A stretch of DNA of 64,000 bases from positions 32,001 to 96,000 of the forward strand of contig JBHHTW010000003.1 of the NCBI GenBank assembly GCA_046861385.1, written 5' to 3'. The translations under genes were made by a program, and so were the position numbers. Under the pieces are notes generated by a model, which ran no database searches, was not told where the DNA came from, and was given only the letters and a program-made list of their open reading frames with translations. Of the stretch, positions 1,986 through 52,277 are shown piece after piece; the stretch's first letter is position 1; every line of letters begins with the position of its first letter. Source of the stretch: Fidelibacterota bacterium. GTDB lineage: Bacteria; Fidelibacterota; Marinisomatia; Marinisomatales; TCS55.

Positions 1986-2969
1986 ATGATGACTTCCCAT
2001 TGCCATATTTTTCGCTGTTATACCAAATTTGTTGTGGGAATGACTCTTTTTTTGATTTTTGTTGGGGCATTGGTGAAGAGTCACGAAGCCGGACTTTCTG
2101 TGCCGGACTGGCCGACAACCTACGGGTACCAAATGTTTGCCTTTCCCTGGTCCGATATGGTTGGGGGCATTTTTTACGAACACGGTCACCGGATGCTTGC
2201 AACTTTCTTAGGCGCCTTGACTTTAATAATGGCTTTCTGGCTGGGATTAAAAGAAAAGAGAAAGCCGGTGAAACTCTTGGGTTATACCGCTTTGGTCCTG
2301 GTTATTGTCCAGGGACTTCTTGGTGGATTAACCGTTTTGTTTTTTTTACCTGTTTCTATTTCTCTCCTTCACGGTGTGGTGGCTCAAACATTTTTTCTTG
2401 TTGTTATTTTGATTGCTTTTTCCCAATCCAAGGAGTTCCATCAAGGAAAGCGATCTTATCGGGATGGAAGTTATTTTTATATCCTGGCATTGTTAATTGC
2501 TGTTTTTATTCAATTAATTATCGGTGCTTGGATGCGCCATACTGAATCTGGATTGGCCATATATGATTTTCCCAAAATGGCGGGAGCCTGGTTGCCGTTG
2601 TTTAATCATGCGATGTTGAAACATATTAATGACTGGCGTTTTAATATGGACCTGCCCGATGTGACGTTATTTCAGGTAATGATTCACTTTATTCACCGGT
2701 TAGGGGCATTGGTTATTTTCGTACTTACAGTTGTCACTCATTATAAAATGATCCGCTATCTAAACCGATATTCAAGGAGAATTAAAAGGAACCTGTATTT
2801 TTTAGATAGCCTAATTTTGATCCAAATTCTATTAGGCGCTTTTACCATCTGGTCAGCCAAAGGGCCTTTCATTACGAGTTTTCATGTAATGAATGGCGCC
2901 ATGGTCATGGGTGCTTGTTTTTTATTGTTATTAAGATTGTCCGATTTATCATTTTTAAGGGCGACATAA
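1986..2969 (+). CDS. ctaA: Heme A synthase (COX15/CtaA)
   Basis: Multi-TM protein with GLSVPDWP, EHGHR and HRLGA motifs. Confidence 0.9.
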   Translation: MMTSHCHIFRCYTKFVVGMTLFLIFVGALVKSHEAGLSVPDWPTTYGYQMFAFPWSDMVGGIFYEHGHRMLATFLGALTLIMAFWLGLKEKRKPVKLLGYTALVLVIVQGLLGGLTVLFFLPVSISLLHGVVAQTFFLVVILIAFSQSKEFHQGKRSYRDGSYFYILALLIAVFIQLIIGAWMRHTESGLAIYDFPKMAGAWLPLFNHAMLKHINDWRFNMDLPDVTLFQVMIHFIHRLGALVIFVLTVVTHYKMIRYLNRYSRRIKRNLYFLDSLILIQILLGAFTIWSAKGPFITSFHVMNGAMVMGACFLLLLRLSDLSFLRAT

Positions 2970-2972
2970 ACG

Positions 2973-3851
2973 ATGAAAACCAAACGAATGACAGGAAAAA
3001 ACTTTGCTGCCTATTTTGAATTAATGAAACCCAATATCATGTCTTTGGTATTGGTCACTACCGTATTGGGGTATTACTTAGGTGGAAATGGTATTGATTC
3101 CTGGTCCAGGTTGGCAATGGTCCTTTTCGGGACGGCCTTAACGGCCGGGGGGTCTGGAGCATTAAATCATTATTTGGAAAGAGATTCAGATAAATTAATG
3201 GACCGGACCAAAAATCGACCAATTCCAACGGGGATGATTTTACCGGCTGATGCGTTAATATTCGGTGTAATCCTGGTGGTCTCCGGGACCGTATTCCTCG
3301 CATATAATATTAATTTATTAACGGGGTTTTTGTCAATAATGACATCATTCCTGTATATTTTGGTTTATACGCCATTAAAAAAAATAACCTGGTTGAATAC
3401 TTCAATAGGATCGATTCCAGGGGCCTTGCCGCCTGTAGGAGGCTGGGCAGCGGCTACAGGAGACCTAAGTACTGGTGCATGGATATTATTTGCCATTATG
3501 TTTCTATGGCAACATCCCCATTTCTATGCAATCGCGTGGATATTTAAAGAAGATTATGCCAAAGCTGACTTTAAAATGCTTCCGGTCATAGAGCCGGATG
3601 GAAAAAGAACCGTCAGGCAAATATTCTGGCATTTGATTTTATTAATTCCCATATCTGCTATGCCATATTTTAGCGGCATTTCCGGGGATTTCTATTTGTT
3701 TAGTGTTATTATTTTAACTGGACTCTTTTTTATTTCAGCGATACCCATGTATCGTGAAAAAAACAGAAATAATGCCAGGGCGCTTTTAAAGTCGTCCATT
3801 ATTTATTTACCAATTTTATTAATCTTGATTGTTGTTGATAAAGCTATATGA
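2973..3851 (+). CDS. ctaB: Protoheme IX farnesyltransferase (heme O synthase)
   Basis: NHYLERDSDKLMDRTKNRPIP, YTPLK, GALPPVGGW and WQHPHF motifs. Confidence 0.95.
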   Translation: MKTKRMTGKNFAAYFELMKPNIMSLVLVTTVLGYYLGGNGIDSWSRLAMVLFGTALTAGGSGALNHYLERDSDKLMDRTKNRPIPTGMILPADALIFGVILVVSGTVFLAYNINLLTGFLSIMTSFLYILVYTPLKKITWLNTSIGSIPGALPPVGGWAAATGDLSTGAWILFAIMFLWQHPHFYAIAWIFKEDYAKADFKMLPVIEPDGKRTVRQIFWHLILLIPISAMPYFSGISGDFYLFSVIILTGLFFISAIPMYREKNRNNARALLKSSIIYLPILLILIVVDKAI

Positions 3852-25511: not shown

Positions 25512-25705
25512 TTACTACGGCATAGGTTAGCGATAGCTTTCGTATGAATCACAGTTACAAATAGACAATTACATTTCTGTCATTACGAAAAGTGGAGCGA
25601 CGAAGTGATCTCCTTGGGAATGATGAAAGAAGGAGATTGCTTCGTCGCTCGTTCCTCTCTTCTCGCAATAACATTAATTTATTACGAAAACCATTACCAG
25701 ATTAA
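25512..25705. mobile_element. MITE-like element, copy 1, with internal REP-like palindrome
   Basis: TA on both sides (25510-11, 25706-07). Ends TTACTACGG...CCAGATTAA. Internal TGTCATTACGA...TCGCAATAACA (25578-25673) with a 21-bp stem 25595-25615/25630-25650. Related to 61398-61578. Confidence 0.75.
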
Positions 25706-37897: not shown

Positions 37898-38009
37898 GGT
37901 GTATGGATTTTATATGTTTAATTGATTTTTAAGAAGCAGAAACTAATGAAAATAAATTCATAGTTCAGGCAACTTTTTTTGTTCTATTATCTATTATTAA
38001 AAAAACAAT

Positions 38010-39251
38010 TCAAGGAGAAACGGTTTGCATGATAATCCCACATAACCAGGCTCCGTAAGTGCCGACAGCATAACCAAAAACTGCAAGTAGAACACCCACC
38101 GATGCGAGGGATGGATGAAAAGCCGAGGCTACGATGGGCGCTGAGGCAGCCCCTCCAATATTTGCCTGACTACCCACAGCGAGGAAAAAGAAAGGAGCCT
38201 TGATTATCTTTGCTGCAACGATGAGTAAAATGGCATGAATACTAATCCAAATAATTCCCACGAGGAAAAGACCTGGATGATCAAAAATGGCTAATATATT
38301 CATTTTCATTCCAATGGTAGCTACGAGAATATAAAGGAAAAGACTTCCAAAATTGGATGCACCGACACTTTCAAGATTTCTTACCCTGGTAAACGAAAGG
38401 AATATGGCGATGGTTGTGGAAAGAACAATGATCCAAAAAAAACCAGATGTTAAACTAAATCTCGACAAATAAGGAGCATGAATTTGTATCCAGGGTGCAA
38501 TCAAATCTGATAAATAATGAGATAATGATGTAATTCCAAATCCGGCACCAAGGATAGTGAACAAGTCTACCAATTCTGGTATTTGTCTGGTTCGGGCATG
38601 GTAATTCTCCATTTTAATAACTAACCTATCAATAGAAGATGTATCTCCCTTTAACCATTTATCAATTTTTTTATGAATGCCTGCACCATATAAAAGAAAA
38701 GCCATCCAAATATTCGCAACAATTACATCGATGGTAATCATGGCTGAAAATAAGTTATCATTCACTTCGAAAACTTCTTTCATGGCGGCTTGGTTGGCAC
38801 CTCCACCTATCCAACTTCCTGCAATCGTTGTCAACCCTCGCCAAACGGCTTCGGAACCAGCGCCACCAACTGTTTCAGGAGAAATTAGAGACATAATTAA
38901 AATAGCGATAGGACCGCCAATGATAATACCAAATGTCCCTGTTAAAAACATGATTAATGCTTTGGGCCCTAATTTTAATATTTCCTTTAAATCAATACTT
39001 ATGGTTAGAAGCACTAGGCTGGTGGGTAGTAGGTATCGGGATGCAACAAAATACAATTTAGAATCGTCGCCTGAAATAATTCCAAATGAATTGAGCAATG
39101 ATGGAATAAAATAGGCCAATAATAAAGTAGGAACAAAAGTATAGAATTTTTTCCAAAAAGGAGAATTGCATTTTGATGTTCTAAAAATAAAAACAAGGAT
39201 TCCTATTAGTATACCTAATACAACTGCATCGTTTGTAATGAATGGTTTCAT
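38010..39251 (-). CDS. DUF819 family membrane protein
   Basis: AGSWIGGGANQAAM and GSQANIGGAASAP; multi-TM. Confidence 0.85.
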   Translation of the reverse strand: MKPFITNDAVVLGILIGILVFIFRTSKCNSPFWKKFYTFVPTLLLAYFIPSLLNSFGIISGDDSKLYFVASRYLLPTSLVLLTISIDLKEILKLGPKALIMFLTGTFGIIIGGPIAILIMSLISPETVGGAGSEAVWRGLTTIAGSWIGGGANQAAMKEVFEVNDNLFSAMITIDVIVANIWMAFLLYGAGIHKKIDKWLKGDTSSIDRLVIKMENYHARTRQIPELVDLFTILGAGFGITSLSHYLSDLIAPWIQIHAPYLSRFSLTSGFFWIIVLSTTIAIFLSFTRVRNLESVGASNFGSLFLYILVATIGMKMNILAIFDHPGLFLVGIIWISIHAILLIVAAKIIKAPFFFLAVGSQANIGGAASAPIVASAFHPSLASVGVLLAVFGYAVGTYGAWLCGIIMQTVSP

Positions 39252-39466
39252 AAAGTTTTTCTCCGTTTTCTACTATGATACGTCCATATCAAATTCAATA
39301 ATTAATCGTGTAAAACCTAACGCAAAATATTAGTAAAAAATTTCATGGAGCTTCAGAAATTAATAGTGAGCTAACTATCAATATTTTTTCTCTGTGGCGA
39401 TAAAACAGATGATCCTTTTATAGTAATGGAACGCTAATTTAAATTGTACTCGCTTTTAAGAATACC

Positions 39467-40300
39467 GTGTGGCATAAAATACTAAATAACATTTTCGTCA
39501 AAAATCAATTTCTCGTTGGTTTTGTTCTCATTTTGGCTCTTAACGGCGCGGAAAAAAATACAGTCATCATCCATAGCAATACTATGGATAAGGATTTACC
39601 CTGTATCGTTATTCTTCCCGATAATTATACTGTTTCAACAGATCGATTTTCTGTCGTTTATCTTCTCCACGGGTATGGTGGTAATTACCAAAACTGGTCT
39701 GAACATAAGGATTTGGGAAAAGAATCAGATAAATACAATCTCATAATCGTTTGCCCGGACGGAGGAACCAATAGCTGGTATTTAGATAGTCCTATCGATT
39801 TGGAAAGCCAATACAGGACTTATGTAGGACAGGAAGTGGTTCAATATATTGATATGTATTATAAAACCATTCCTGATAAGCACAATAGAGCCATTACAGG
39901 GTTAAGCATGGGGGGGCACGGTGCATTATATCTGGCTTTAGAATTTCCTGATATATTCGGAGCTGTCGGAAGCATGAGTGGCGTCGTTGATTTAACCTAT
40001 ACGACTAAAAAATATGAACTGATAGAAAAAATTGGTTCATTTGAAAAATACCCTGAGCGGTGGGAACAATATTCTGTTATTTCGAACGTGGAAAAATTTA
40101 TAGGTACCGGCACAAAAATAATTATGGACTGCGGTGTGGACGATGTATTTATTGAAAGTAATCGAGCATCCCATAAAAAATTACTTGAATTGGAAATATC
40201 CCATGATTATTCGGAAAAACCCGGCGGACATAGCTGGAATTATTGGGTAAACATTTTAGATTATCATTTGATGGCCTTTCAAAAATTTTTTCAACCGTAA
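39467..40300 (+). CDS. Secreted esterase (tributyrin esterase/CE1-like alpha/beta hydrolase)
   Basis: VYLLHGYGG, GLSMGGHG nucleophile elbow, DCGVDD and GGHSWNYW. Confidence 0.88.
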   Translation: MWHKILNNIFVKNQFLVGFVLILALNGAEKNTVIIHSNTMDKDLPCIVILPDNYTVSTDRFSVVYLLHGYGGNYQNWSEHKDLGKESDKYNLIIVCPDGGTNSWYLDSPIDLESQYRTYVGQEVVQYIDMYYKTIPDKHNRAITGLSMGGHGALYLALEFPDIFGAVGSMSGVVDLTYTTKKYELIEKIGSFEKYPERWEQYSVISNVEKFIGTGTKIIMDCGVDDVFIESNRASHKKLLELEISHDYSEKPGGHSWNYWVNILDYHLMAFQKFFQP

Positions 40301-40567
40301 ATTCAGCATATCCATTGTATGGAAACTTATATATTCATCCTTTTTGGTAGAAAGATCCTAGACTCTGGTAAATAACAAACTTATCTGGATTTTTGGATTG
40401 CTCCGACAGGGTCAATGGATTCCATATTCTCAACGGATTTATTTAATTATCAGAAAAGAAGAGAGGGGGGGGTGGTATAAAATCCACAATATTCCATTTT
40501 GCGTTTTATAGTTTCTAAAAAACTATTTTTTTAGTATTAGATTTGGTGCTCCAAAATCAGAGTATTC

Positions 40568-43489
40568 ATGAAAAAAACTTTCAAAATTTTACTTAATATT
40601 TCTTTTTTACTATTCCTGGCTGGCTGTTCCGGTTCGGGTCAATCCCTGGTACAGTCATCCTGGGCAGAACAAACATTGAATCAATTGACTCTACGGGAAA
40701 AAATTGCACAAATGATGGTTTACCACATGAACATGCGCTTTTTAAATGAAGAAGACCCAAAATGGAAAGAGTTAAAATCACTTCTGGAAACAGACGGAAT
40801 CGGTGGCATACATATTTGGTTTGGTGATGCCGGAACTTCCTTAACACTTCTTAATGAAATACAACGACTGTCAAAAGTCCCAATACTGGTAGATGCAGAT
40901 ATTGAATATGGCCTTCATCGACGGTTTCCTGCTGGAACGGACTTACCACCCCTCATGGCCATTGCTGCTACCGGGAGCACAAAATACGCGTATGAAGCAG
41001 GGAAAATATCGGCATTGGAAGGAAGGGCATTGGGAATCCAGTGGAATTTTTCACCCGTTACTGATGTCAATAATAATCCAAATAACCCCATTATAAATAC
41101 ACGTTCCTTCGGTGAAGACCCGGATGATGTCGGAAAATATGCTGTGCAGTTTATGAAAGGTCTGCAGGACAATGGTATGTTATCTACAGCAAAACACTTC
41201 CCCGGTCACGGAGACACAGAAACCGACTCCCACACAAGCCTGGCCACTATTCCCAGCGATTCATCCCGTTTATGGTCATTGGAATTAAAACCATTTCAAA
41301 CTGTGATTGATGCCGGAGTGGATGCGGTCATGGTGGCTCATGTTCATTCACCTGATTTCCAGCCCAATGCAAATCTGCCGGCCACTTTATCCAGATTCTG
41401 GGTTACCGATGTTCTTCGGGAGAAGATGGGTTTTAAAGGTGTCATTGTGACTGATTCTATGGGAATGGGTGGCGTCACCAGAAATTACTCAGACCCTTAT
41501 GCTTTGATCCATGCTATCAATGCTGGCTGTGATTTTATTCTGCAAAATTTTAATGTAAAAAAATCAATTGATGCAGTAGAAAATGCAGTCCAAAGGGGAA
41601 TCATATTGGAAGATCGAATTAATGATTCCGCTTTAAAAATGCTGAAAATGAAAGAAAAAGTGGGTTTGCATGAACAGCCTTATATTTCTATGGATGAAAC
41701 CAGAAAAATTCTGGGAAACCACCAGTTTAAACGAACAGCAGATAAAATGGCTTCCCGATCCATTACTTTGGTGAAGAATGAGAATTCATTTTTACCATTA
41801 AGCGTTGATGAAAATGAAGAAATTATCATTATTGATATTTATGATACTCCCAATAATCATGATGAATCGATCATGACAGCAAGAATAAAACAAAATGGAT
41901 TAAAAGTCAGATCATTTCAGGTTGATGAGTCAGACAGTAATTCCTATTATAAATCGATCCTGGAAACCATACCGGATAATGCAAAAATTATTGTAAATGC
42001 ATTTGCAAGTCCTTCAGCAAGGAAAAATCGAATATTTCTACCTGAACACCAAATGGAATTTATCCGTACATTAAATCGGATGTCAAAACGGATTCTTCTG
42101 ATTAGTTTTGGAAATCCTTATTTGATTCAGGGATTCCCTGAATCTCCGGCTTATGTCTGTGCTTGGAAGGGAAGTTTGATTATGCAAAATGCTATGGTTC
42201 AAACATTGCTTGGAAGGAATGGTTTTTCCGGCATACTACCCATAACCATTCCGGACATTGCGCAGAAGGGGTTTGGAATCCCATTAAAGCAGGATTCCCT
42301 AAAATTGGAATGGACTATTTCTATTCCAGGAACAGTAATTCAACATATTATGCCTTACGAAATGGACATTGATACTAAAGAGGTAAATACATTCCTTCAA
42401 GCAGCCGTTGCGGATTCCGCATGGCCTGGCGCAGTGTTAATTGCAGGAAAGGACGGAAAAATATTTATTCATGAGGCTGTGGGATACCATACATACAAAG
42501 GAAAACAAAAAACACAGAAATCGGATATTTTTGACCTGGCATCGATCACTAAAGTGATTGCCACTACATCAGCCATTATGAAATTGGTGGAATCCGGTGC
42601 GCTTGACCTGGATGAAAAAGTGGTAACATATCTTCCGGAATTCAAGGGGAAACAAACAAAATATTTTAAACAAAAAAGTGAAACTAGTATAAAGAATTTG
42701 TTAACCCACACAGCCGGTCTCCCACCTTTTAAACAATATTATCTCATGAATGGAGATATCCATTCGCGGCTGGACAGTGTATTTAACACAGAGCCGATTC
42801 TAGGGTTGGCGGAAAAGACGGTTTATTCGGATATTGGTCTGATTACTTTGGGAAAAGTGATTGAAAGGGTGAGTGGATCTACACTGGATGAATGGGTGGA
42901 TTCTCTTGTGTTCCGGCCATTGGGAATGAATACAACCTTTTTTAATCCACCGCGTGAAAAACTTCATCGAATTGTTCCAACAGAAATAGTCGATGGATAT
43001 CGTAAAGGATTAATTCATGGGGAAGTCCACGATGAAAATTCCTTTAGTTTGGGTGGTATTACCGGGCATGCAGGACTTTTTTCCACGGCAGAAGATTTGG
43101 CAATTTTTTCCCAAATGATGCTTAATGGAGGATTATATGATTTTCACCGGATATTTGAAGAAGAAACAGTAAATTCATTCACCACGAAAGCCAATGTGGT
43201 AGAAGGCAGTTCGCGGTGTCTCGGTTGGGATAGCCCGGAAGGAAAAGCATCTGGTGGTGTGTACCTGAGTGATAACAGTTTTGGTCATACTGGATATACA
43301 GGAACATCATTATGGATTGATCCGGAAAACCAAATGTTTGTTATTCTACTGACGAATGCGGTCCATCCAAACCGTTCTTGGAAAGATCCAAAATATTATG
43401 ATTGGAGGCAACTGATTCATTCAGCTGTTTACACAGCGGTTGGAATTACTGAAAAAAATCCTAAACTAGATTGGAGAAAAGATTGGTGA
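40568..43489 (+). CDS. GH3 beta-N-acetylglucosaminidase (NagZ-like) fused to a beta-lactamase-family serine hydrolase; lipoprotein
   Basis: Lipobox LAGC; KHFPGHGDTETDSH and VTDSMGM (GH3 NagZ); ASITK (SxxK), YSD and GHTG in the C-terminal domain. Confidence 0.92.
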   Translation: MKKTFKILLNISFLLFLAGCSGSGQSLVQSSWAEQTLNQLTLREKIAQMMVYHMNMRFLNEEDPKWKELKSLLETDGIGGIHIWFGDAGTSLTLLNEIQRLSKVPILVDADIEYGLHRRFPAGTDLPPLMAIAATGSTKYAYEAGKISALEGRALGIQWNFSPVTDVNNNPNNPIINTRSFGEDPDDVGKYAVQFMKGLQDNGMLSTAKHFPGHGDTETDSHTSLATIPSDSSRLWSLELKPFQTVIDAGVDAVMVAHVHSPDFQPNANLPATLSRFWVTDVLREKMGFKGVIVTDSMGMGGVTRNYSDPYALIHAINAGCDFILQNFNVKKSIDAVENAVQRGIILEDRINDSALKMLKMKEKVGLHEQPYISMDETRKILGNHQFKRTADKMASRSITLVKNENSFLPLSVDENEEIIIIDIYDTPNNHDESIMTARIKQNGLKVRSFQVDESDSNSYYKSILETIPDNAKIIVNAFASPSARKNRIFLPEHQMEFIRTLNRMSKRILLISFGNPYLIQGFPESPAYVCAWKGSLIMQNAMVQTLLGRNGFSGILPITIPDIAQKGFGIPLKQDSLKLEWTISIPGTVIQHIMPYEMDIDTKEVNTFLQAAVADSAWPGAVLIAGKDGKIFIHEAVGYHTYKGKQKTQKSDIFDLASITKVIATTSAIMKLVESGALDLDEKVVTYLPEFKGKQTKYFKQKSETSIKNLLTHTAGLPPFKQYYLMNGDIHSRLDSVFNTEPILGLAEKTVYSDIGLITLGKVIERVSGSTLDEWVDSLVFRPLGMNTTFFNPPREKLHRIVPTEIVDGYRKGLIHGEVHDENSFSLGGITGHAGLFSTAEDLAIFSQMMLNGGLYDFHRIFEEETVNSFTTKANVVEGSSRCLGWDSPEGKASGGVYLSDNSFGHTGYTGTSLWIDPENQMFVILLTNAVHPNRSWKDPKYYDWRQLIHSAVYTAVGITEKNPKLDWRKDW

Positions 43490-43539
43490 TTGGTAGAGTA
43501 GTAACTAGTGGATTGGTGAGTAGTGGATTGGTTGTTGGT
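43481..43539 (+). repeat. Heptamer tandem array (GATTGGT/GAGTAGT/AACTAGT), about 8 units
   Basis: GATTGGT GATTGGT a GAGTAGT AACTAGT g GATTGGT GAGTAGT g GATTGGT TGTTGGT, read directly. Confidence 0.85.
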
Positions 43540-43567
43540 GGAATAGAAACTCGTAGAGAGGTAAGCG

Positions 43568-43855
43568 GTGAAGTTTAAAGATATTGAAGTAACTAAAACT
43601 GGTTTTATAAGTGAGCCGGATCGATTTAGGTTAGATGATTTTGAAGTCTATAAACTGGCTCATAGGTTTAGAAAGAAATTATCTCCAATGATAAATCAAT
43701 TACCTGAAAAGGAAAAATACAAATTAACAAGCCAAATGCGTGATGCAATCATTTCAGTGACCAATAATATTGCAGAAGCACATGGACGTTGGCATTATAA
43801 AGAATCAATGCTTATTTCAATAACCAAAAAAGTCAAAATAACAAATAACCAATGA
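43568..43855 (+). pseudogene. Four-helix-bundle protein (23S rRNA IVP/TIGR02436 family), probably internally deleted and frameshifted
   Basis: FEVYKLA..LPEKEKYKLTSQMRDAIISVTNNIAEAHGR signature. The sequence diverges after HYKE, while a family-like C-terminus RINAYFNNQK lies in another frame (43801-43848). Confidence 0.78.
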
Positions 43856-43917
43856 ATACTCACCAGTTACCACTCGCCAGTTACCGCTCACCAGCTACCG
43901 CTCACCACTCACCAGTA
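43841..43917 (+). repeat. Heptamer tandem array (ACCACTC/ACCAGTT-like), 11 units, inverted relative to 43481-43539
   Basis: ACAAATA ACCAATG AATACTC ACCAGTT ACCACTC GCCAGTT ACCGCTC ACCAGCT ACCGCTC ACCACTC ACCAGTA, with exact 7-nt period. Confidence 0.9.
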
Positions 43918-44733
43918 TTATTATTTTTTACTTTTTACTTTTTACTTACCATTGGATATTCGAATCAGGACAATTGGGTGAGTTCGCTGCCAAAACCCTG
44001 GAGTTTAAATGAAGAGCAAATATCAGAAATTTTACCCCAATTTTATCAGCATTATCCCGATTTTCATGACCGCCTTAAAGCATTTGCCGTGTGGCAAGTG
44101 GGTAAACCGTACGAAATATATAAACTGGGAGATGAAGTCGAACCGGATCCTGATCCTATCATCAGGCTGGATGTTTCTGATTGTACCGTTCACGTATTGA
44201 CCAGCCTGGCCTTTTCCCAGAGTAAATCCTGGGAGGAAGCCAGATCCAATATGATAGCAATCCATTATAAAGATGGAATTCCATCTTATAAATCACGGTG
44301 GCATTATACCACTGACCGTATTCAGGAAAATCCATCTACGGTTAATATTACAGAAAAATTATTGGATAAAAACCAGTTGGAAAAAATTAACATTACTCTG
44401 AATAAAAAAGAAGATGACAGTGAATTTCTGGACTTGGATTGGGAGAAAAATACTTCTGTTTATTTTATACCGAATCAAGAAATCAATAAACAACTATTAA
44501 AAAAACTTCCGGAAGTTTGCGGTGTTGCATTTGTCAGGATAAAATATTTTAAAATTGGGATTGTAATTGCCCACGAAGGAATGATCATTGATCAACAAAA
44601 TCTGGTTCATGCATCATCGGAATATGGTGAAACTGTCAGTGTGGACTTTATGAAATATTATTTTAGGGATGATGGTCCAGTTTTTGACGGTATTATGATC
44701 TATTCATTTCATCCATTATCAGGGATCAAATGA
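43852..44733 (+). CDS. DUF1460 (AmiA-like, NlpC/P60 fold) N-acetylmuramoyl-L-alanine amidase-like protein
   Basis: GKPY..LG..D..DCTVHV, RWHYTTD, AHEG and HASS; hydrophobic signal segment. Confidence 0.8.
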   Translation: MNTHQLPLASYRSPATAHHSPVLLFFTFYFLLTIGYSNQDNWVSSLPKPWSLNEEQISEILPQFYQHYPDFHDRLKAFAVWQVGKPYEIYKLGDEVEPDPDPIIRLDVSDCTVHVLTSLAFSQSKSWEEARSNMIAIHYKDGIPSYKSRWHYTTDRIQENPSTVNITEKLLDKNQLEKINITLNKKEDDSEFLDLDWEKNTSVYFIPNQEINKQLLKKLPEVCGVAFVRIKYFKIGIVIAHEGMIIDQQNLVHASSEYGETVSVDFMKYYFRDDGPVFDGIMIYSFHPLSGIK

Positions 44734-47048
44734 TGAAATCAAGTGTAGAGAAATGTTTTTTAGAAAGATCAAATTACATTCAACAGAATACAAAAATACC
44801 TTATATAGTTGTCGAGAATTTCCCAAGACTCGGATTATTAACGTCTTTAAGATTTCTGGAATGGGTCAGTCACCATCCGGAAGGTGTTATCAGCCTACCC
44901 ACAGGAAAAACTCCTGAATTTTTCATCAAATGGACTCAACATATTCTGGATAAATGGTCTGATAAAAAAATAGAACGAATTCGTAAGAGTAACGGACTCG
45001 AAATAAATCAAAAACCGAACATGAGCAGACTTAAATTTGTGCAGATCGACGAGTTTTATCCTATTAATCCCAGGCAGCACAATAGTTTTTATAATTATGT
45101 TCAGCGCTTTTATGTATCAGAATTTGGCCTTGATGCCACTCGAGGACTATTTATGAATTGTGATGATATTCCAACTGGGGATGGGAAATCATTAATGGAG
45201 ATATTTCCTGATCAAAAAGTGGATTTATCACTCCGATACAGAGAACCGAAGTCTGAATCAGAAAAGAATCAGCAGGATACAATTTTTCTCGTAGATCAAT
45301 GGTGTACTGAATATGAATCAGCGATCCGGGAAATGGGAGGAATCGGTTTTTTCCTGGGGGGAATTGGTCCTGATGGACATATTGCCTTTAATGTTCGTGG
45401 TTCAGATCATCATTCAACGACCCGACTCATGGAAACAAATTTTGAGACCCAAGCGACTGCCTCCACTGATTTAGGCGGTATCGATATTGCCAAAAGCCGT
45501 TTGGTAATCACCATTGGTTTATCCAGTATTACTGCTAAACAAAATGTAACAGCTATTATTATGGCAGCCGGTGAAGCCAAAGCAGAAATAGTAAAAAAAT
45601 CATTAGAAATGGATCAGAATATTCAATATCCCGCCACTGTTTTACAATTATTGGAAAACAGTCGATTCTACTTAACACAGGGAGCTGCATGTCGATTAAA
45701 TGATGTGACTGATTATCATTTATCACATGATCCGTGGACGAAGGAAAATACAGAGAGGGTGGTTGTAAATCTCTGTCAAAAACTAAATAAGTTCGGTCAT
45801 AGACTCAGTGTAGAAGATTTTAAAGATGATTCTGTAGGGTTGCTCATAAAGGATATTGATGAAACGATAGTTCCCACTGTCATTCAGTCGTTTCGCAGCA
45901 AGTTAGAAAAAGCAATTCATGTTCCGGATGGCGAAACTTTTTTACATACTGGGCCTCACCACGATGATATTATGCTGGGTTATTTACCCCATATTATTCA
46001 TTTAGTGCGGTCTCCGAAAAATAGAAACTACTTCGCGAATTTAACTTCGGGATTTACTTCTGTTACTAATCGATACCTCGCGGATGTATTGAAGGAAACA
46101 GCAAAATTATTAACTGCTGGTAGAATTGAAATGACTGATTTTACAGATTTTTTTGAAAAAGGATACAATCGAAAACGAGATAAAGATGTATATCATTATC
46201 TAGACCGGATCGCTGAAGGGAATACTCAAGGACAAAAAAGAGGATTAAGCCATCGCATCGTTCGAGCCCTTGTTGAAATCCATTCCATAAAATCCAAAGA
46301 TGAATTAATTCAAAAAATTAATGAATCCGAATCCTATTTAAAAACATGCTATGATGGTCAAAAAAATCCCGAAAATATTCAAAAGCTAAAAGGGATGATT
46401 CGCGAATTTGAAGAAGAATTGGTGTGGGCTCATTACGGCGTTCAGGTCAAAGATGTTCATCATTTACGATTGGGATTCTATCAGGGAGATATTTTCACAG
46501 AGACGCCGGAAAAAACACGGGATGTTGAACCTATTTTAGCCCTTTTAAAGAAATTAAACCCAACAGTAATTACTCTAGCGTTAGATCCGGAAGGAAGTGG
46601 TCCCGACACTCATTATAAAGTATTGCAAGCCATTGCTGAAGCGGTGCGTTTATGGGGAAAAGAAACCGATTTAACTCATTTGAAGATTTGGGGTTATCGC
46701 AATGTCTGGTATCGATTTAGCCCGTGGGAAGCGGATATAATTGTTCCTGTTTCACTCAACTCCATGGCCATGCTCCGCGATACATTTATGAATTGTTATT
46801 TAAGCCAAAAGGATGCGTCTTTCCCCAGTTACGAATTGGATGGTCCTTTCTGTGATTTAACTCAAAAAATTTGGTATGAACAGCATAAGCTAATGGAATT
46901 AGTCTTGGGCAGGGATTTTTGGTACCAGAATGAACACCCCAGGTTGCGAGCAACCCACGGTCTGGTTTACCTGCGAGAATTGTCTGTCGAACAATTTTTG
47001 AGCGAAGCCAGACGATTAGAAAAATCAATCGAAGGTGAGATCGATTAA
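44730..47048 (+). CDS. nagB: Glucosamine-6-phosphate deaminase fused to a PIG-L/LmbE deacetylase-like domain
   Basis: LPTGKTP, IDEFY and GGIGPDGHIAFN; C-terminal GPHHDD and DPEGSGPDTH. Confidence 0.88.
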   Translation: MMKSSVEKCFLERSNYIQQNTKIPYIVVENFPRLGLLTSLRFLEWVSHHPEGVISLPTGKTPEFFIKWTQHILDKWSDKKIERIRKSNGLEINQKPNMSRLKFVQIDEFYPINPRQHNSFYNYVQRFYVSEFGLDATRGLFMNCDDIPTGDGKSLMEIFPDQKVDLSLRYREPKSESEKNQQDTIFLVDQWCTEYESAIREMGGIGFFLGGIGPDGHIAFNVRGSDHHSTTRLMETNFETQATASTDLGGIDIAKSRLVITIGLSSITAKQNVTAIIMAAGEAKAEIVKKSLEMDQNIQYPATVLQLLENSRFYLTQGAACRLNDVTDYHLSHDPWTKENTERVVVNLCQKLNKFGHRLSVEDFKDDSVGLLIKDIDETIVPTVIQSFRSKLEKAIHVPDGETFLHTGPHHDDIMLGYLPHIIHLVRSPKNRNYFANLTSGFTSVTNRYLADVLKETAKLLTAGRIEMTDFTDFFEKGYNRKRDKDVYHYLDRIAEGNTQGQKRGLSHRIVRALVEIHSIKSKDELIQKINESESYLKTCYDGQKNPENIQKLKGMIREFEEELVWAHYGVQVKDVHHLRLGFYQGDIFTETPEKTRDVEPILALLKKLNPTVITLALDPEGSGPDTHYKVLQAIAEAVRLWGKETDLTHLKIWGYRNVWYRFSPWEADIIVPVSLNSMAMLRDTFMNCYLSQKDASFPSYELDGPFCDLTQKIWYEQHKLMELVLGRDFWYQNEHPRLRATHGLVYLRELSVEQFLSEARRLEKSIEGEID

Positions 47049-47080
47049 TATTTTTCAATTTATTTATAATCGTTTATAAA

Positions 47081-47683
47081 ATGTCTTTTAAAATACGCTG
47101 TTATCGCCCTGATGATTTTAATGCTATTTATAAAATTTGTCTTGAAACGGGCGATAGTGGAAAAGATGCCACAGAACTGTTCAACGATCCGGATCTTCTG
47201 GGCCATTTATATTCAGGACCCTATGTTATCCTTGAGCCGGAGTCGGCATTCATATTAGAAGATGCCATGGGTCCCTGTGGCTATATTATTGGGGCGTTGG
47301 ACTCAGAATCATTCTATAAGAAAATGAATGACTTATGGCTGCCTCAAATCCGTAAAAAATATACAGATCCGAAACCGGGTTTAACCCAATGGACGAAAGA
47401 TGAAGAATTGATTCATCATTTATTCCATCCGAAGGAGCCAGTCATTTTGCCGGACTATCCGTCCCATCTTCATATTGATTTATTATCCCGGGCGCAAGGC
47501 CAGGGACAGGGGAAAAAAATGATGGACCATTTCTTTCAATATTTAAAAGTAAATCATTCCAAAGGAATACACCTCGGTCTGAGTATTCATAATAACAGGG
47601 CGTTTCATTTTTATAAACAATACGGAATGACAGAATTATTTCGCAATTCAGACGCCATTATTATGGGGTTTTCTTTTGAGTAA
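47081..47683 (+). CDS. GNAT acetyltransferase resembling the O-GlcNAcase C-terminal AT-like domain
   Basis: IRCYRPDD..YKICLET, LYSGPYVILEPESAFILED, YPSHLHIDLL, QGQGQG and FYKQYG. Confidence 0.82.
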   Translation: MSFKIRCYRPDDFNAIYKICLETGDSGKDATELFNDPDLLGHLYSGPYVILEPESAFILEDAMGPCGYIIGALDSESFYKKMNDLWLPQIRKKYTDPKPGLTQWTKDEELIHHLFHPKEPVILPDYPSHLHIDLLSRAQGQGQGKKMMDHFFQYLKVNHSKGIHLGLSIHNNRAFHFYKQYGMTELFRNSDAIIMGFSFE

Positions 47684-49115
47684 TCTTTTCAGGAAGATAT
47701 TATCTTTCGGAAAAGTCCATCCCCTGTTTTCTTTCCTATCCTTTCTGATCGCCGGGTTAAATATCTTTTTCCACATTCCTGTTCAGATTATTAATGCAGT
47801 TACTTTTTTACCGGAAACTCAGTTCAATATTCACATCAGCTGGATCAGAATATTAGTGGAACCCTTTGTGGGTTTTCCTCTCTTCCTCTTACGTTCTAGC
47901 CAAGCCCTCGAAGAATATTTTGTGATTTGGCTGTGGCTGTGTGTCATATTTGGTATTTTACTCATCCTTAGGTGGAAAAATGAATCCTACTTTCAGCCCC
48001 TGAAACTGTTTGTTCTTTCCATTCCTGCCATGGTCGGCATAGCATTATTCGTGTTGGTATGGATGGTTTTCTGGCCTTTGCCTGCAAATCGAATCGTAAA
48101 TCATTCTGAAAATATGATTTTATTCAATGCCCATTCCCATTCCCATTTTAGTCATGATGGGTTAATGATCCCTGAAGAACTGATGAAGTGGCACGAGAAA
48201 AACGGATTTGATGCTTTTTTCCTTACGGAACACAACCATAATCCGGAAACATTGAAGCTGGTTCATCGGCAAGAAACGGGTCAATTATCTCAAACGCCAC
48301 ATATCATAACAGGCATTGAATTCTCCGGAAGTAACCATTTATTATTATTAGGCCTGACAGACACCCTGATTACATTTGGGAAACAGGATACATTTGCCAT
48401 CAATGAAACCCATCGGCAGGGGGGACTGGTTGGCGTCGCCCATTGGTTTGACGGCCAAAAAAAATCATTAACCCACTACTTGGATACCGGTATAGACGGA
48501 TTTGAAATTGCCAATCAAAATTTAATCTCGTACCCGAAAGAAATCCATGATAAAATGGTAAGGTTATGCCGGGAGAATCATTTATTTCTATTAAGTAATG
48601 CTGATTACCACGGTTATGGGCCGACTTGTAATACATGGAATGGGCTGGAAATACCTCATTGGAATGATTTAAACCACCGGAAAAAAACAGAGGTCATCTT
48701 GAAAGGGCTAAAAGAAGGCAAAACAAAAACGTTGTTCTACCATGACCGTGCGAATACGATTCAGGGTAATATTTGGATAAGTCCTTTATATTATTGGTTG
48801 AACTACTTCAGGGGATTGAACGGCTGGCAGCTTTTTTCCTGGCTTCTGTGGAGTCTGTGGATATTGTATAAAAAAATAAATTGCAGTCCCCGGCGCATGA
48901 TGATCTGGATTCCATTCATAGCAGGAATCTCATTATTTATCCAAGGAGAAATACTCCTTTCAAGATCAGGGGATGTCCTGAAAACCAATGAAATTTATTT
49001 AGAATATGGACATTTACTTTTTAATTCAGGATTGGCATTATTCATCGCCGGAGCAATCCTTTTTATCTTATTCAAACGGTTTCCCCAATGGGTCCGAGTG
49101 CCTGATCGTTATTAA
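47676..49115 (+). CDS. Membrane-anchored PHP-domain metallophosphoesterase
   Basis: HSHSHFSHDG, TEHN, AHW, GFEIAN and NADYH, flanked by TM segments. Confidence 0.8.
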   Translation: MSNLFRKILSFGKVHPLFSFLSFLIAGLNIFFHIPVQIINAVTFLPETQFNIHISWIRILVEPFVGFPLFLLRSSQALEEYFVIWLWLCVIFGILLILRWKNESYFQPLKLFVLSIPAMVGIALFVLVWMVFWPLPANRIVNHSENMILFNAHSHSHFSHDGLMIPEELMKWHEKNGFDAFFLTEHNHNPETLKLVHRQETGQLSQTPHIITGIEFSGSNHLLLLGLTDTLITFGKQDTFAINETHRQGGLVGVAHWFDGQKKSLTHYLDTGIDGFEIANQNLISYPKEIHDKMVRLCRENHLFLLSNADYHGYGPTCNTWNGLEIPHWNDLNHRKKTEVILKGLKEGKTKTLFYHDRANTIQGNIWISPLYYWLNYFRGLNGWQLFSWLLWSLWILYKKINCSPRRMMIWIPFIAGISLFIQGEILLSRSGDVLKTNEIYLEYGHLLFNSGLALFIAGAILFILFKRFPQWVRVPDRY

Positions 49116-49922
49116 TCCACCAACCATTTTTCGTTAAAAACGGCGTGCATGATAGTTTTGCCCTGAGAATTGTGGTAAGTATAAGTCAAATGGAGGTTTC
49201 CATCATTCGTTTGAATCAGTGAAGGGTAAGAAAAACTTTCTGATAAATCATTGGATAACCCGATATGACGTGTTCAACCCCAGGATTTGCCTTCGTCGTC
49301 AGATACAGACACAGCCCAGCTGTTTCGATTGTTTTCCGTGTCATTATACACCATCATCCAATGCTCATTATTTAGAACAATCACTTCCAGGCTGGAACCG
49401 GGGTTTGGAATGTCCGTATCGATAGCGAAAGACCAGGATTCTCCTTCATCGACTGATTGACTAATCATCACCCGTTGGGGAGTACTTCCACCGTCTCTTA
49501 AATAGGCGGTAATGGTTCCATTCTTTTTCACGGCCAATGTCGGTTGAACAGGGCCAAGTCCGATGATCGGAGAACTGGCTCTCCATGATGCCCCTGAATC
49601 GTCACTGATGGCCATGAGAGAGATATTGAACCCATCCGAATACAAGGGAAGTAATATTCTCCCGGAAGAAAGGATAGTGGGATGAATTCGGGTCATCCAA
49701 CCTTTCTGGCGTTTTTCCTGATCAGATGCCGCCTCAGTAATGAGTCTTTCGTAAGGCAAAGCGTACTGGGCCCAAACAGGATCAGTGTAATGATCTTCGA
49801 AGGCTTTTTTAATTAAATGATAAAAAGAATCACCCGGTTTTAATATAATGATATCCTGCCATTCCCATTGGGGGACGCCTTTTTGGTTGTAACGGGTTGA
49901 TGTCTTAACCCTCAGAATTGAA
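49112..49922 (-). pseudogene. BNR/Asp-box exo-alpha-sialidase-like pseudogene (5'-truncated, internal TGA)
   Basis: Asp boxes SDDSGASW, SVDEGESW and SDDEGKSW. The frame continues past TGA 49274-76 (TRHI..SYPSLIQT..LHLTYTY..KWLVD*) to 49112. No plausible native start. Confidence 0.82.
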
Positions 49923-52277
49923 TTATTCCCGGATAAAATTGTAATATAATCCCATATAATAAGGTAAAAGAAATACCGTCCCATCGGCGAGTTCCTGTCC
50001 GTTCCCGCCTGTGTTCAGGGTCCAGGGATCCCGATTCCAGTGGTTAAAAAAACATTCGTCCACCGGAATGACTTTACCATCTACCCGATATCCCTTTCGG
50101 GAATTATCCCCGTCAAATGTACGATTCCATGAATGGAGTTTTAACAAATCGATTCTCTGACTGTTTTCATGACGCCAATTGAATCGATCCAGAGGAAAGC
50201 GAACCAGCGTCTCAACCGATTCTTCCAACCATTTTTTATGTGGAGCTAAATCATAAGTCCCCCAGGCATCTGAAAAATTCAAGCCAGTGGTAGCCGCCCG
50301 AAAAGTAAAATTGAAAAAGGGATTCAGTTCCGGCGCCAGCAGCATCCAGTTCATATACATGGAAAAGGCATATCGGGACTTCAATTCAGGATCCCACTCA
50401 TAGTTTATTAAATGATAATAAGCCATCATGGCCATTTCGTCATCCGATTGATTTCCGGTGCCAACCCCCCGTTGGAATTTCATATCAATCATATTTTGGG
50501 CATACCCGTGTTCTTTATTAAGCCATTGGGAAAGTTCTCTGTATTTTGAGTTTCCGGTCATATGGTAAGCAACTGCTAAATAGGAAAGCATACTTAGAGA
50601 ATTGAGTCCACGCTCTGCAAACCAATTTTTACTGTGATTAAGTTCGTCGGGGTTGAATCGCGCCCATCGTGTGGGTCTGCCGTCGTGGTCTACCAGTTGA
50701 AAATCGTGATTAATTAGATGATTGGTCAGCCGCACAACGTGTTCCCTCACCTCGGCTTTTTCTGCTTCCGTCTCAGCCACCAAATCATAATACAAGGCGT
50801 ATAAGAAATAATGTCCGTCCAATTCGTCAGAACTGGTATCTGTTTTATAATACCATTTTCCGTCCCTGCTTTTTGGCCATCGGGGTTCATAGACCTTCCA
50901 TAATTTATCATAATGATCATGGGTTTGTTGATCGTTTTCCAACCGCCCGTCATTTGGATCCGGCCCGCTGGTTGGAAGGATAGTCCTGGCTACAAAGCCG
51001 GGAGGAGGAGAAATGGGAGCGTTCTGGGTAACATCTCCTAAAAATTTTAATGCCTCAAATGCTTTTTTAGCCCTGGCTTTTGCTTTTGGATCTTTGGTGG
51101 CTCCATAAGCAAAACATTCAGCGGCGCCATACATTCCTGTCCACAATCCGTCATTGTCACTATCGTGTTGCGTCCACGTGGATGTATCTCCGGGAGCAGA
51201 AAGAGAAACATCCAGCACATATTCGTAAGGTGTTCGTCGGTGGAATTTGTCAATGGCATCTTCGTAAAATTCCGCTTTTTCAGCCAGGGTCATTTCAGAT
51301 TTATAAATTTTGGACAGACCTTGACTGGTAGCAAACCAGACGGTACCGTCTTTTGCAACTGCAACATCATGAATATCATCATCCGGCAGCCATCGCTTTC
51401 CCTGTCTATATTCCCAGCTGTTACCGTCAAAATGGATCGCCCCTTTATGGGTTCCAAACCACACATCCCCATCGGGTCCGGCAGCCATTTTGGTGAAATC
51501 ATTATAAGGCAGACCATCTTTTCCCTCGTAGAGAGTCCATTGACCATCATAAACACCCACACCTTGGGGGCTGGCAAACCAGAGGCGGTTTTTGGAATCA
51601 ATGACCACACTTCTGCAATCATTCAGCGCCCAGCTCCGATCACCCGATGAAGGAAAAATTTGTTCCCAGACCTTTTTTGAGTTGTACTTTTTGTATAATC
51701 CCGATCCACTAGCAATATAAAGAGTATTGTCCTCCCCGATGGCTATCTGGTTAATGTGGCTACCCGGGAATTCTATTTCTTTTAGTCCACTTTGTTTATT
51801 TTGCTTATCTGGAATATTAAATGAAAAAAGTTTCCCTGAATAGGCAAGATATACCCGGCTCTCTGAAAGAAAAATATCGCCCGATTGAACATTCATTTGA
51901 ATTTGTTTTGGTAGTGGGATTTTATGTGTCAGAATTTGATTTTTGATGATATACACCCATCCCAAACCATCTTTATTATTTTCCGGCTGAGTAAAAACAG
52001 CCACTTGCTTACCATTTGAATTAACAAAATATCCCGGTTCTTTAACGGTCCAAAATTCTTCCCATTTATTATTTTTCCGGTTCAGAATTGACATGCCCTC
52101 ATCCGTACCTCCATAAACCTCTCCGTCGTTCGTAACGACGACAGAATGAACGACTTGCCCTTTCAGTTCAACGGATTGTTTTTCCTGGAGGAAAGAAGGG
52201 ATAAATATGGATTCACCGGCAGAAGCGGAGCTGAAAAGAAAAAGAATAATATAAATGATGGATTGATTAAAGCGCAT
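49923..52277 (-). CDS. Secreted protein: regulator-type beta-propeller repeats plus a C-terminal helical domain of unknown function
   Basis: Signal peptide; repeats LWFASPQG, DGLPYND and VWFGTHKG; C-terminal DSDNDGLWTGMY and TSSDEL. Confidence 0.75.
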   Translation of the reverse strand: MRFNQSIIYIILFLFSSASAGESIFIPSFLQEKQSVELKGQVVHSVVVTNDGEVYGGTDEGMSILNRKNNKWEEFWTVKEPGYFVNSNGKQVAVFTQPENNKDGLGWVYIIKNQILTHKIPLPKQIQMNVQSGDIFLSESRVYLAYSGKLFSFNIPDKQNKQSGLKEIEFPGSHINQIAIGEDNTLYIASGSGLYKKYNSKKVWEQIFPSSGDRSWALNDCRSVVIDSKNRLWFASPQGVGVYDGQWTLYEGKDGLPYNDFTKMAAGPDGDVWFGTHKGAIHFDGNSWEYRQGKRWLPDDDIHDVAVAKDGTVWFATSQGLSKIYKSEMTLAEKAEFYEDAIDKFHRRTPYEYVLDVSLSAPGDTSTWTQHDSDNDGLWTGMYGAAECFAYGATKDPKAKARAKKAFEALKFLGDVTQNAPISPPPGFVARTILPTSGPDPNDGRLENDQQTHDHYDKLWKVYEPRWPKSRDGKWYYKTDTSSDELDGHYFLYALYYDLVAETEAEKAEVREHVVRLTNHLINHDFQLVDHDGRPTRWARFNPDELNHSKNWFAERGLNSLSMLSYLAVAYHMTGNSKYRELSQWLNKEHGYAQNMIDMKFQRGVGTGNQSDDEMAMMAYYHLINYEWDPELKSRYAFSMYMNWMLLAPELNPFFNFTFRAATTGLNFSDAWGTYDLAPHKKWLEESVETLVRFPLDRFNWRHENSQRIDLLKLHSWNRTFDGDNSRKGYRVDGKVIPVDECFFNHWNRDPWTLNTGGNGQELADGTVFLLPYYMGLYYNFIRE

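Follow-up and report, generated by a model that had tools for sequence, protein, structure and literature searches.

What is a small four-helix-bundle gene doing between two genes of a bacterial operon, framed by arrays of seven-nucleotide repeats that are complementary to one another? The question arises in a 64,000-nucleotide stretch of DNA from a Fidelibacterota bacterium (GenBank assembly GCA_046861385.1, contig JBHHTW010000003.1, positions 32,001 to 96,000 of the forward strand), here called the window, whose own positions are used throughout. At 43481-43917, as profile matches and the map of open reading frames (ORFs) bear out, a TIGR02436/23S-IVP-like (PF05635) gene lies between a GH3 gene and a DUF1460 gene, the latter encoding an AmiA-like amidase (PF07313). 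An initial annotation, made from the sequence alone, proposed a self-contained cassette of gene and repeats, inserted into operons by an unknown route and possibly excised or sequestered at the level of RNA or DNA. The arms of paralogues and the junctions of relatives support a cassette entering operon junctions; self-containment of this copy and clean excision are not supported. The reading we favor, at a probability of roughly 0.6, is that the feature is a dead copy of a selfish cassette, a gene plus inverted repeat arms, lodged at an operon stop/start junction and sharing the design of the ORF-bearing intervening sequences (IVSs) of 23S rRNA.

Inverted repeat arms across the PF05635 family

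In the genome that holds the window (G000; 97.85% complete), we ranked the flanks of the 1911 ORFs with full flanks among 1991 called by a simple ORF finder. The flank duplex of the cassette gene (-73.1) was the strongest of all. The genome has ten PF05635 matches. When ORFs were ranked by inverted 5-mer pairs in their flanks, seven of the ten paralogues fell in the top 3% and two more at 5.3%, placing nine within the top 6%; the tenth, with just 35 nucleotides (nt) of contig upstream, scored nothing. The inverted arrays that the initial annotation had proposed looking for beside paralogues are therefore present. Within a subfamily the repeat unit was constant, and between subfamilies it was different.

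Across the phylum, PF05635 was matched in 100 of 121 sampled genomes, with up to 44 matches per genome, and periodic inverted arms surrounded the gene at 11 of 12 loci drawn from among the top 30 by score. Elsewhere, among 16 loci hand-picked from 61 to span other phyla, 12 had clear arms, one was doubtful and three had none. Sixteen control tiles from the window included none that was visibly periodic; seven gave one weak inverted pair at similar spacing (at most 27 nt, 70-83%). Two metagenome-assembled genomes (MAGs) from other phyla retain the TGGT unit of the window's subfamily: one of Pirellulales, at 59% identity, and one of Bacteroidetes, at 53%, where the unit takes the form of 8-mers. 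In relatives at or below about 46% identity the unit differs, with lengths of 7, 8 or 10 nt, and 6-mer units occur at L002, L060 and L082 (L-numbers denote individual loci read in relatives or paralogues, G-numbers genomes). These comparisons show a repeat unit particular to each protein subfamily.

A candidate subfamily with direct repeats (L059 and one gene in L052) was rejected: more flank revealed an upstream left arm in L059, and the related L125 and L157 are plainly inverted; L052 was not re-read. L059 also shows, at 1080-1840, a partial tandem duplication of the PF05635 gene with its joint where a stretch within the gene resembles the right arm. At L085/L088 (G018:C47, about 95850-96450) the gene is interrupted by an ORF that by eye resembles a GIY-YIG nuclease. 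Short GC-rich hairpins of the CCTGCC...GGCAGG or CCCGCC...GGCGGG type lie within or beside heptamer arms at L056 (1320-1410), L233 (2450-2480), L012, L067, L352 (255-275) and L339 (1560-1585); they are a second small repeat element that has landed in arms in several genomes. Inverted flanks near the top rank also surround two ORFs resembling REP-associated tyrosine transposases (RAYTs; REP, repetitive extragenic palindromic) and one DUF559-like ORF, all named by eye (G000:C73:37821-38384, G000:C60:20895-21473 and G000:C72:151377-151751), and small nuclease genes flanked by inverted repeats co-occur with cassettes in G000.

Gain, loss and replacement at operon junctions

Of 41 genomes, 32 were found to have the AmiA-like gene, and 30 loci were retrieved; with G000 and four loci whose junction could not be read set aside, and one locus added later, 26 GH3-AmiA junctions were read. 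The cassette gene is present in none of them. Fifteen junctions are plain (the one checked has its AmiA start overlapping the end of GH3), eight hold gene-less hairpins of another type, one (G013) has a solo left arm plus a hairpin, and two are of other kinds. Empty sites in relatives, suggested at the outset as a check on the cassette, are found here. The left arm of G013 is of the window type, has a 15-nt stretch in common with the window and stands alone before a hairpin of the other type. Paired purine-rich and pyrimidine-rich arms occur at this junction in nine relatives (the eight and G013), and the units of the eight hairpins match the arms of the subfamily represented by L070, L071 and L084. 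In all three cases checked the gene-less hairpin lies inside the coding region for the AmiA signal peptide. In L013 (1378-1500), L014 and L021 (1381-1500) the purine-rich arm codes for the Lys/Arg/Glu-rich N-region of that peptide and the pyrimidine-rich arm for its Phe/Leu-rich core.

Two further junctions were compared. Among 30 fusA-HIT loci, the window subfamily is present in five, internally deleted in one and reduced to a left-arm relic in one; another subfamily occupies four and is represented besides by one fragment and one right-arm relic; ten loci have a short gene-free spacer, and seven are unreadable or non-syntenic. At the 3' end of pruA in five genomes, one holds the full cassette, three retain a left-arm relic and G000 has almost nothing. 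The upstream stop codon is where the left arm starts at GH3-AmiA, fusA-HIT and pruA alike, with the same unit and the same fusion to the stop. At G000:C96/C99 and the fusA-HIT junction of G004, the resident right arm precedes a second one, from a different cassette type that has lost its left arm and gene, an arrangement also seen in the window.

Read side by side, these junctions show that the gene travels with its arms as one unit, which is gained, lost and replaced by other subfamilies at stop/start junctions. The partial forms make up a decay series, from internal deletion through gene-less hairpin to solo arm. The left arm begins at, and supplies, the upstream stop codon.

Gene-less arrays are also found elsewhere in G000. 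A pattern search placed the window unit at about two dozen positions, some of them likely chance; its reversed-pattern control (23 of 44 matches) hits the same arrays and is uninformative. All nine of the other places that we read are gene-less. They comprise hairpins (ahead of uvrA, and in the gap between two tRNA-like genes), solo left arms located at stop codons, and stacked arms of different types. Gene-less arrays of a second unit, AAACGTA, which belongs to the paralogue at G000 C78:51722-52198, lie at G000:C80 (about 135350-135450 and 136750-136850) and at G000:C35 (near 2400-3500 and 6480).

Arms and gene of the window cassette

The left arm (43481-43569) consists of about 12 degenerate units of the GATTGGT, GAGTAGT and AACTAGT type, alternating between 7 and 8 nt with a 15-nt super-period. 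Tandem Repeats Finder (TRF) scored 43481-43540 at 30 for period 7 (8.1 copies, 64% matches) and at 55 for period 15; by eye the array continues to about 43569, where the cassette gene has its start codon. The upstream array first described as about eight heptamers is thus there, in a longer and less regular form. The right arm (43841-43917), delimited by TRF and by eye, is built of ACCAGTT, ACCACTC and ACCGCTC units, the reverse complement of the left-arm unit. Eight clear heptamers stand in exact 7-nt register at 43862-43917, and the count of 11 given initially is reached only with three degenerate in-register units from 43841. A frame of 31 codons is open across the left arm (43483-43578), from a TTG start to a stop shortly after the cassette gene begins; a comparable frame is readable by eye in L001 and L078, and it could conceivably be a translational-coupling leader.

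The arms had been proposed to pair in many registers, and pairing was indeed found in several, the longest ungapped stretch being 16 nt. The RNA fold of 43481-43917 (-115.9 kcal/mol, z -4.70) was equaled by none of 100 shuffles, and the arms close the stem in both the minimum free energy (MFE) and centroid structures. The stem is interrupted, with helices of about 11 base pairs (bp) or fewer. The same segment gave z -3.57 when folded as DNA and z -2.01 as opposite-strand RNA, for which 2 of 100 shuffles did as well; in two gene-less hairpins, sense and opposite strands gave z -3.9 versus -2.9 and -6.8 versus -5.5. We considered this sense-strand (G-U) bias as proof of pairing at the RNA level and do not claim it, as the bias did not recur in L236, L238 or L013. 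Two alleles of the left arm occur together in the sample at 43505-43565, seen as a small contig bubble (depths 30 versus 17 and 14 versus 9).

The gene between the arms (43568-43855, 95 codons, forward strand) is broken. It scores 44 bits against TIGR02436 (cut-off 24) and 50.7 bits against PF05635 (cut-off 33.8), covering only positions 1-54 of 109 and 2-58 of 106 of the two profiles. Alignment to intact relatives shows homology as far as 43809 (helices 1-2) and then a frameshifted tail, with a 3' remnant of the original reading frame at 43810-43848. A 148-column gap against the intact relative L078 marks the breakpoint at 43809..43810: an internal deletion of 148 nt with a frameshift, missed by the initial annotation, eliminates helices 3-4. 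The deleted form is unchanged in contigs of runs X2 and X4 that span 43536-44700; both come from one sample, possibly the source.

The predicted model of the intact paralogue L001 (predicted local distance difference test score 86.6) has a complete four-helix bundle, with helices at residues 27-43, 54-74, 78-104 and 110-143, and resembles Xcc0516 (2GSC), BT_0352 (2RLD) and Avd (4DWL) with TM-scores by target of 0.85-0.89. Homology of the window copy ends near residue 81 of this model, so that its bundle is incomplete, and its truncated protein scores 25.3 bits against the Avd profile NF033474, below the 80-bit cut-off. Judged by its sequence, the window copy is a pseudogene, of value as a record of decay and of co-option by the host; lacking helices 3-4, it is not the self-contained cassette first envisaged.

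Directly after the right arm comes a third array that had gone unseen, made of TTTTTAC units at 43918-43947 (TTACTTT, 43921-43947, by TRF). Units of this type flank the PF05635 subfamily of L070, L071 and L084. By comparison with relatives, the array is the surviving right arm of a hairpin of that other subfamily, that is, a relic of a second, unrelated cassette type.

Host operon and cassette boundaries

The gene upstream of the cassette (40568-43489, forward strand; ORF list and profile matches) encodes a fusion of a GH3 beta-N-acetylhexosaminidase-like domain with a beta-lactamase-fold serine hydrolase. Its final codons form part of the left arm, and its stop codon, TGA at 43487-43489, lies inside it. 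Downstream, the AmiA-like gene (43852-44733, forward strand) has a single in-frame start, the ATG at 43852, which the cassette encloses, on the 5' side of the clear right-arm units; the right arm itself codes for the N-terminus of the AmiA-like protein, and the TTTTTAC relic encodes the hydrophobic part of its signal peptide. Both ends of the cassette therefore overlap the coding sequence of its neighbors, an overlap not noticed at first, and a cassette can evidently supply a downstream start codon, with the downstream frame reading through the right arm. The ends seem to have outlasted the gene because the host now depends on them for the stop and start codons at the GH3-AmiA junction.

The operon (40568-47048) continues with a long glucosamine-6-phosphate deaminase-like protein and has the look of a unit for peptidoglycan recycling; in the 26 relatives read, the GH3 and AmiA-like genes are neighbors. 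A scan for promoters and terminators gave no signal exceeding shuffles. The statement that neither rRNA nor reverse transcriptase is present holds, with no Rfam match within 38000-50000 and no match to PF00078 (reverse transcriptase) in G000. An intergenic hairpin elsewhere in the window (25595-25650; 21 nt, 90% complementary) resembles in style one at L352 (490-530).

Weighing the selfish-cassette reading

Several observations weigh against a selfish, mobile cassette. Clear arms were missing at one of the 12 phylum loci and four of the 16 from other phyla. Whole-cassette folding of intact relatives was not above shuffles (L236, z -1.58; L238, z 0.05), even if the arms of both nonetheless pair in MFE and centroid structures, and the sense-strand preference of the window (z -4.7 versus -2.0) was not repeated in L236, L238 or L013. 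By eye, the GH3-AmiA, fusA-HIT and pruA junctions have no consistent target-site duplication or fixed end; L078 has a 6-nt repeat at both ends, which may be arm sequence. No recent jump was caught: the copies in G000 have diverged, the closest pair being about 75% alike in protein by eye. Several sites are common to multiple genera, and together with the absence of a recent jump this means that the same patchiness could come from vertical inheritance combined with horizontal exchange of entire junctions. PF05635-family matches occur in just 22 of 72,556 plasmid records. G000 has no PF00078 match, and we know of no mobilizing enzyme. Finally, gain and loss were read from the comparison of junctions.

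One alternative is that the module serves the host. A pentameric ring would act as a post-transcriptional regulator of heptamer arrays, autoregulatory at its own gene and governing a regulon of other gene ends through translational coupling or mRNA stability, and the gene would move solely by ordinary horizontal exchange. Such a role would suit the two dozen or so positions of the window unit in G000, many of them exactly at stop codons, and the retention of intact copies across genera at fusA-HIT; MacGregor suggested a translational role for TAACTGA repeats (PMC4679880). It sits poorly with a copy number that ranges from 0 to 44 per genome within one phylum, with the many broken copies, with the substitution of one subfamily for another at a single junction, and with neighbors as functionally unrelated as an amidase, HIT, uvrA and tRNAs. 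We consider it unlikely.

The initial annotation favored an mRNA intervening sequence, in which the arms are a substrate of RNase III and the cassette is cut from the transcript, leaving the operon mRNA split or rejoined. The protein family and arm design are those of the Coxiella IVS, whose first heptamer is described as the point at which RNase III cuts the stem (PMC4990558); the window arms are predicted to fold; and removal of exactly 43481-43917 would join the GH3 and AmiA-like genes in frame, an outcome with a one-in-three chance that depends on the ends chosen. Against this, the window stem is broken into short helices, IVS excision is reported to have no ligation step (PMC4990558), and solo left arms, the commonest relic seen, could form no stem. 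Clean excision from the mRNA is unlikely, because the excised piece would take with it the GH3 stop as well as the sole in-frame start of AmiA. At the DNA level, no joint skipping the cassette was present in four runs' contigs, a kind of data from which rare variants drop out. We regard an mRNA intervening sequence as improbable.

Chance, that is, simple repeats made by slippage around a small pseudogene, can draw on the weak score of the left array alone at period 7, on heptamer slippage as a proposed general cause of such repeats (summarized in PMC4679880) and on the weak single pairs in seven of the 16 control tiles, but it is refuted by the top rank of the flanks among 1911 ORFs, by complementary units that change together on both sides with the protein subfamily and by the same unit beside the same subfamily in other phyla, unless a larger sample were to uncouple arms from subfamily.

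Proposed mechanism and relation to known elements

Returning to the selfish cassette, we infer both its route of mobility and the binding of repeats by its protein. By analogy with Avd, a pentameric protein would recognize the repeat units of its own cassette in a single-stranded nucleic acid, probably the transcript, and bind one unit at each protomer interface. The paired arms would conceal the insert from the operon. Insertion would be rare, would prefer junctions that already hold arms and would need an enzyme supplied in trans, none being encoded in the cassette.

The closest known systems are the ORF-bearing 23S rRNA IVSs (S23p) of Coxiella burnetii and Leptospira. As described in PMC4990558, they have the same protein family, an ORF within an inverted-repeat stem loop, tandem heptamers of variable copy number 5' of the ORF, a sporadic distribution, ORF deletions in some strains and a length of about 430 nt. 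The Coxiella IVS carries the S23p ORF in the loop of a 28-bp near-perfect terminal stem; RNase III cleaves it without ligation, and one strain has a 176-bp deletion of the ORF (PMC4990558). The window cassette likewise has a predicted stem around an ORF and heptamers before an S23p ORF, but it lies outside rRNA: cassettes of its class stand between protein genes and, in gene-less form, between tRNA genes. Their stem, unlike that of Coxiella, is degenerate, interrupted and able to pair in many registers; their ends overlap host stop and start codons; they occupy many sites with many repeat units per genome; and they give no evidence of excision. The window element is thus an ORF-bearing IVS in design and not by location.

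Homology of the family to Avd has been noted (PMC10053308). Avd (PDB 4DWL, 8UB7) and Xcc0516 and BT_0352 (2GSC, 2RLD) share the fold of the intact paralogue model; Avd and Xcc0516 are pentamers (PMC3936711; 10.1101/2023.10.23.563531), and Avd is reported to bind flipped-out RNA bases between protomers (10.1101/2023.10.23.563531). In contrast to the Avd of diversity-generating retroelements, the window protein falls below the Avd cut-off and is without helices 3-4, and no reverse transcriptase was found in G000.

Dispersed heptamers offer a second comparison. The TAACTGA repeats of Beggiatoaceae (PMC4679880) and the GGGAATC inverted pairs of Xanthomonas (PMC4692102) are both presented as unexplained, and the main texts of those two papers contain none of the terms "helix bundle", "S23" or "intervening" and do not tie the repeats to the PF05635 family. 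The short tandemly repeated repetitive (STRR) sequences of cyanobacteria are another dispersed heptamer repeat. Like the cassette arms, such repeats are 7-nt intergenic units that often overlap stop codons, form close inverted pairs and have an unexplained origin; the difference is that for the window's cassette class a gene-bearing parent form and a decay series are seen.

MITEs (miniature inverted-repeat transposable elements) and REP/RAYT systems are non-autonomous hairpin relics that occur beside rarer gene-bearing forms, at intergenic positions and with empty sites in relatives. The cassette class shares the gene-less hairpin relics, intergenic sites and empty sites. It differs in having neither a transposase nor an HUH nuclease in the cassette, and by eye no fixed termini or consistent target duplication were seen. 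PF05635 is the sole ORF inside the cassette, arm length and ends vary among copies, and the arms are degenerate tandem arrays whose unit tracks the protein subfamily. The literature that we searched, mostly open access and excluding supplements, holds no description of an intergenic class of gene plus arms. As an insertion class it is apparently widespread and undescribed.

Implications for the PF05635 family

Members of the family have been described inside cas loci (PMC3936711) and, as IVS-type ORFs, at scattered rRNA sites in bacteria of the candidate phyla radiation (PMC11270868). If true, the cassette model would explain their presence in both places without a role there.

To our knowledge, bacterial heptamer repeats have no accepted origin. 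PF05635 is abundant and has no known function, and the link between subfamily and repeat unit ties it to the origin of such repeats. A bolder possibility, which we put forward tentatively, is that PF05635 genes and their arms form a distinct class of mobile element that carries no transposase, integrase or reverse transcriptase, in which a ring protein would read its own tandem unit and the protein-bound hairpin would be inserted at operon stop codons, rRNA helices and tRNA spacers. The ORF-bearing rRNA IVSs might then represent a small number of copies that came to rest in rRNA, and many of the heptamer repeats of bacteria that lack an explanation might be scars. The window locus itself gives a view of the end state: a dead cassette whose ends now give the host a stop codon, a start codon and signal-peptide sequence.

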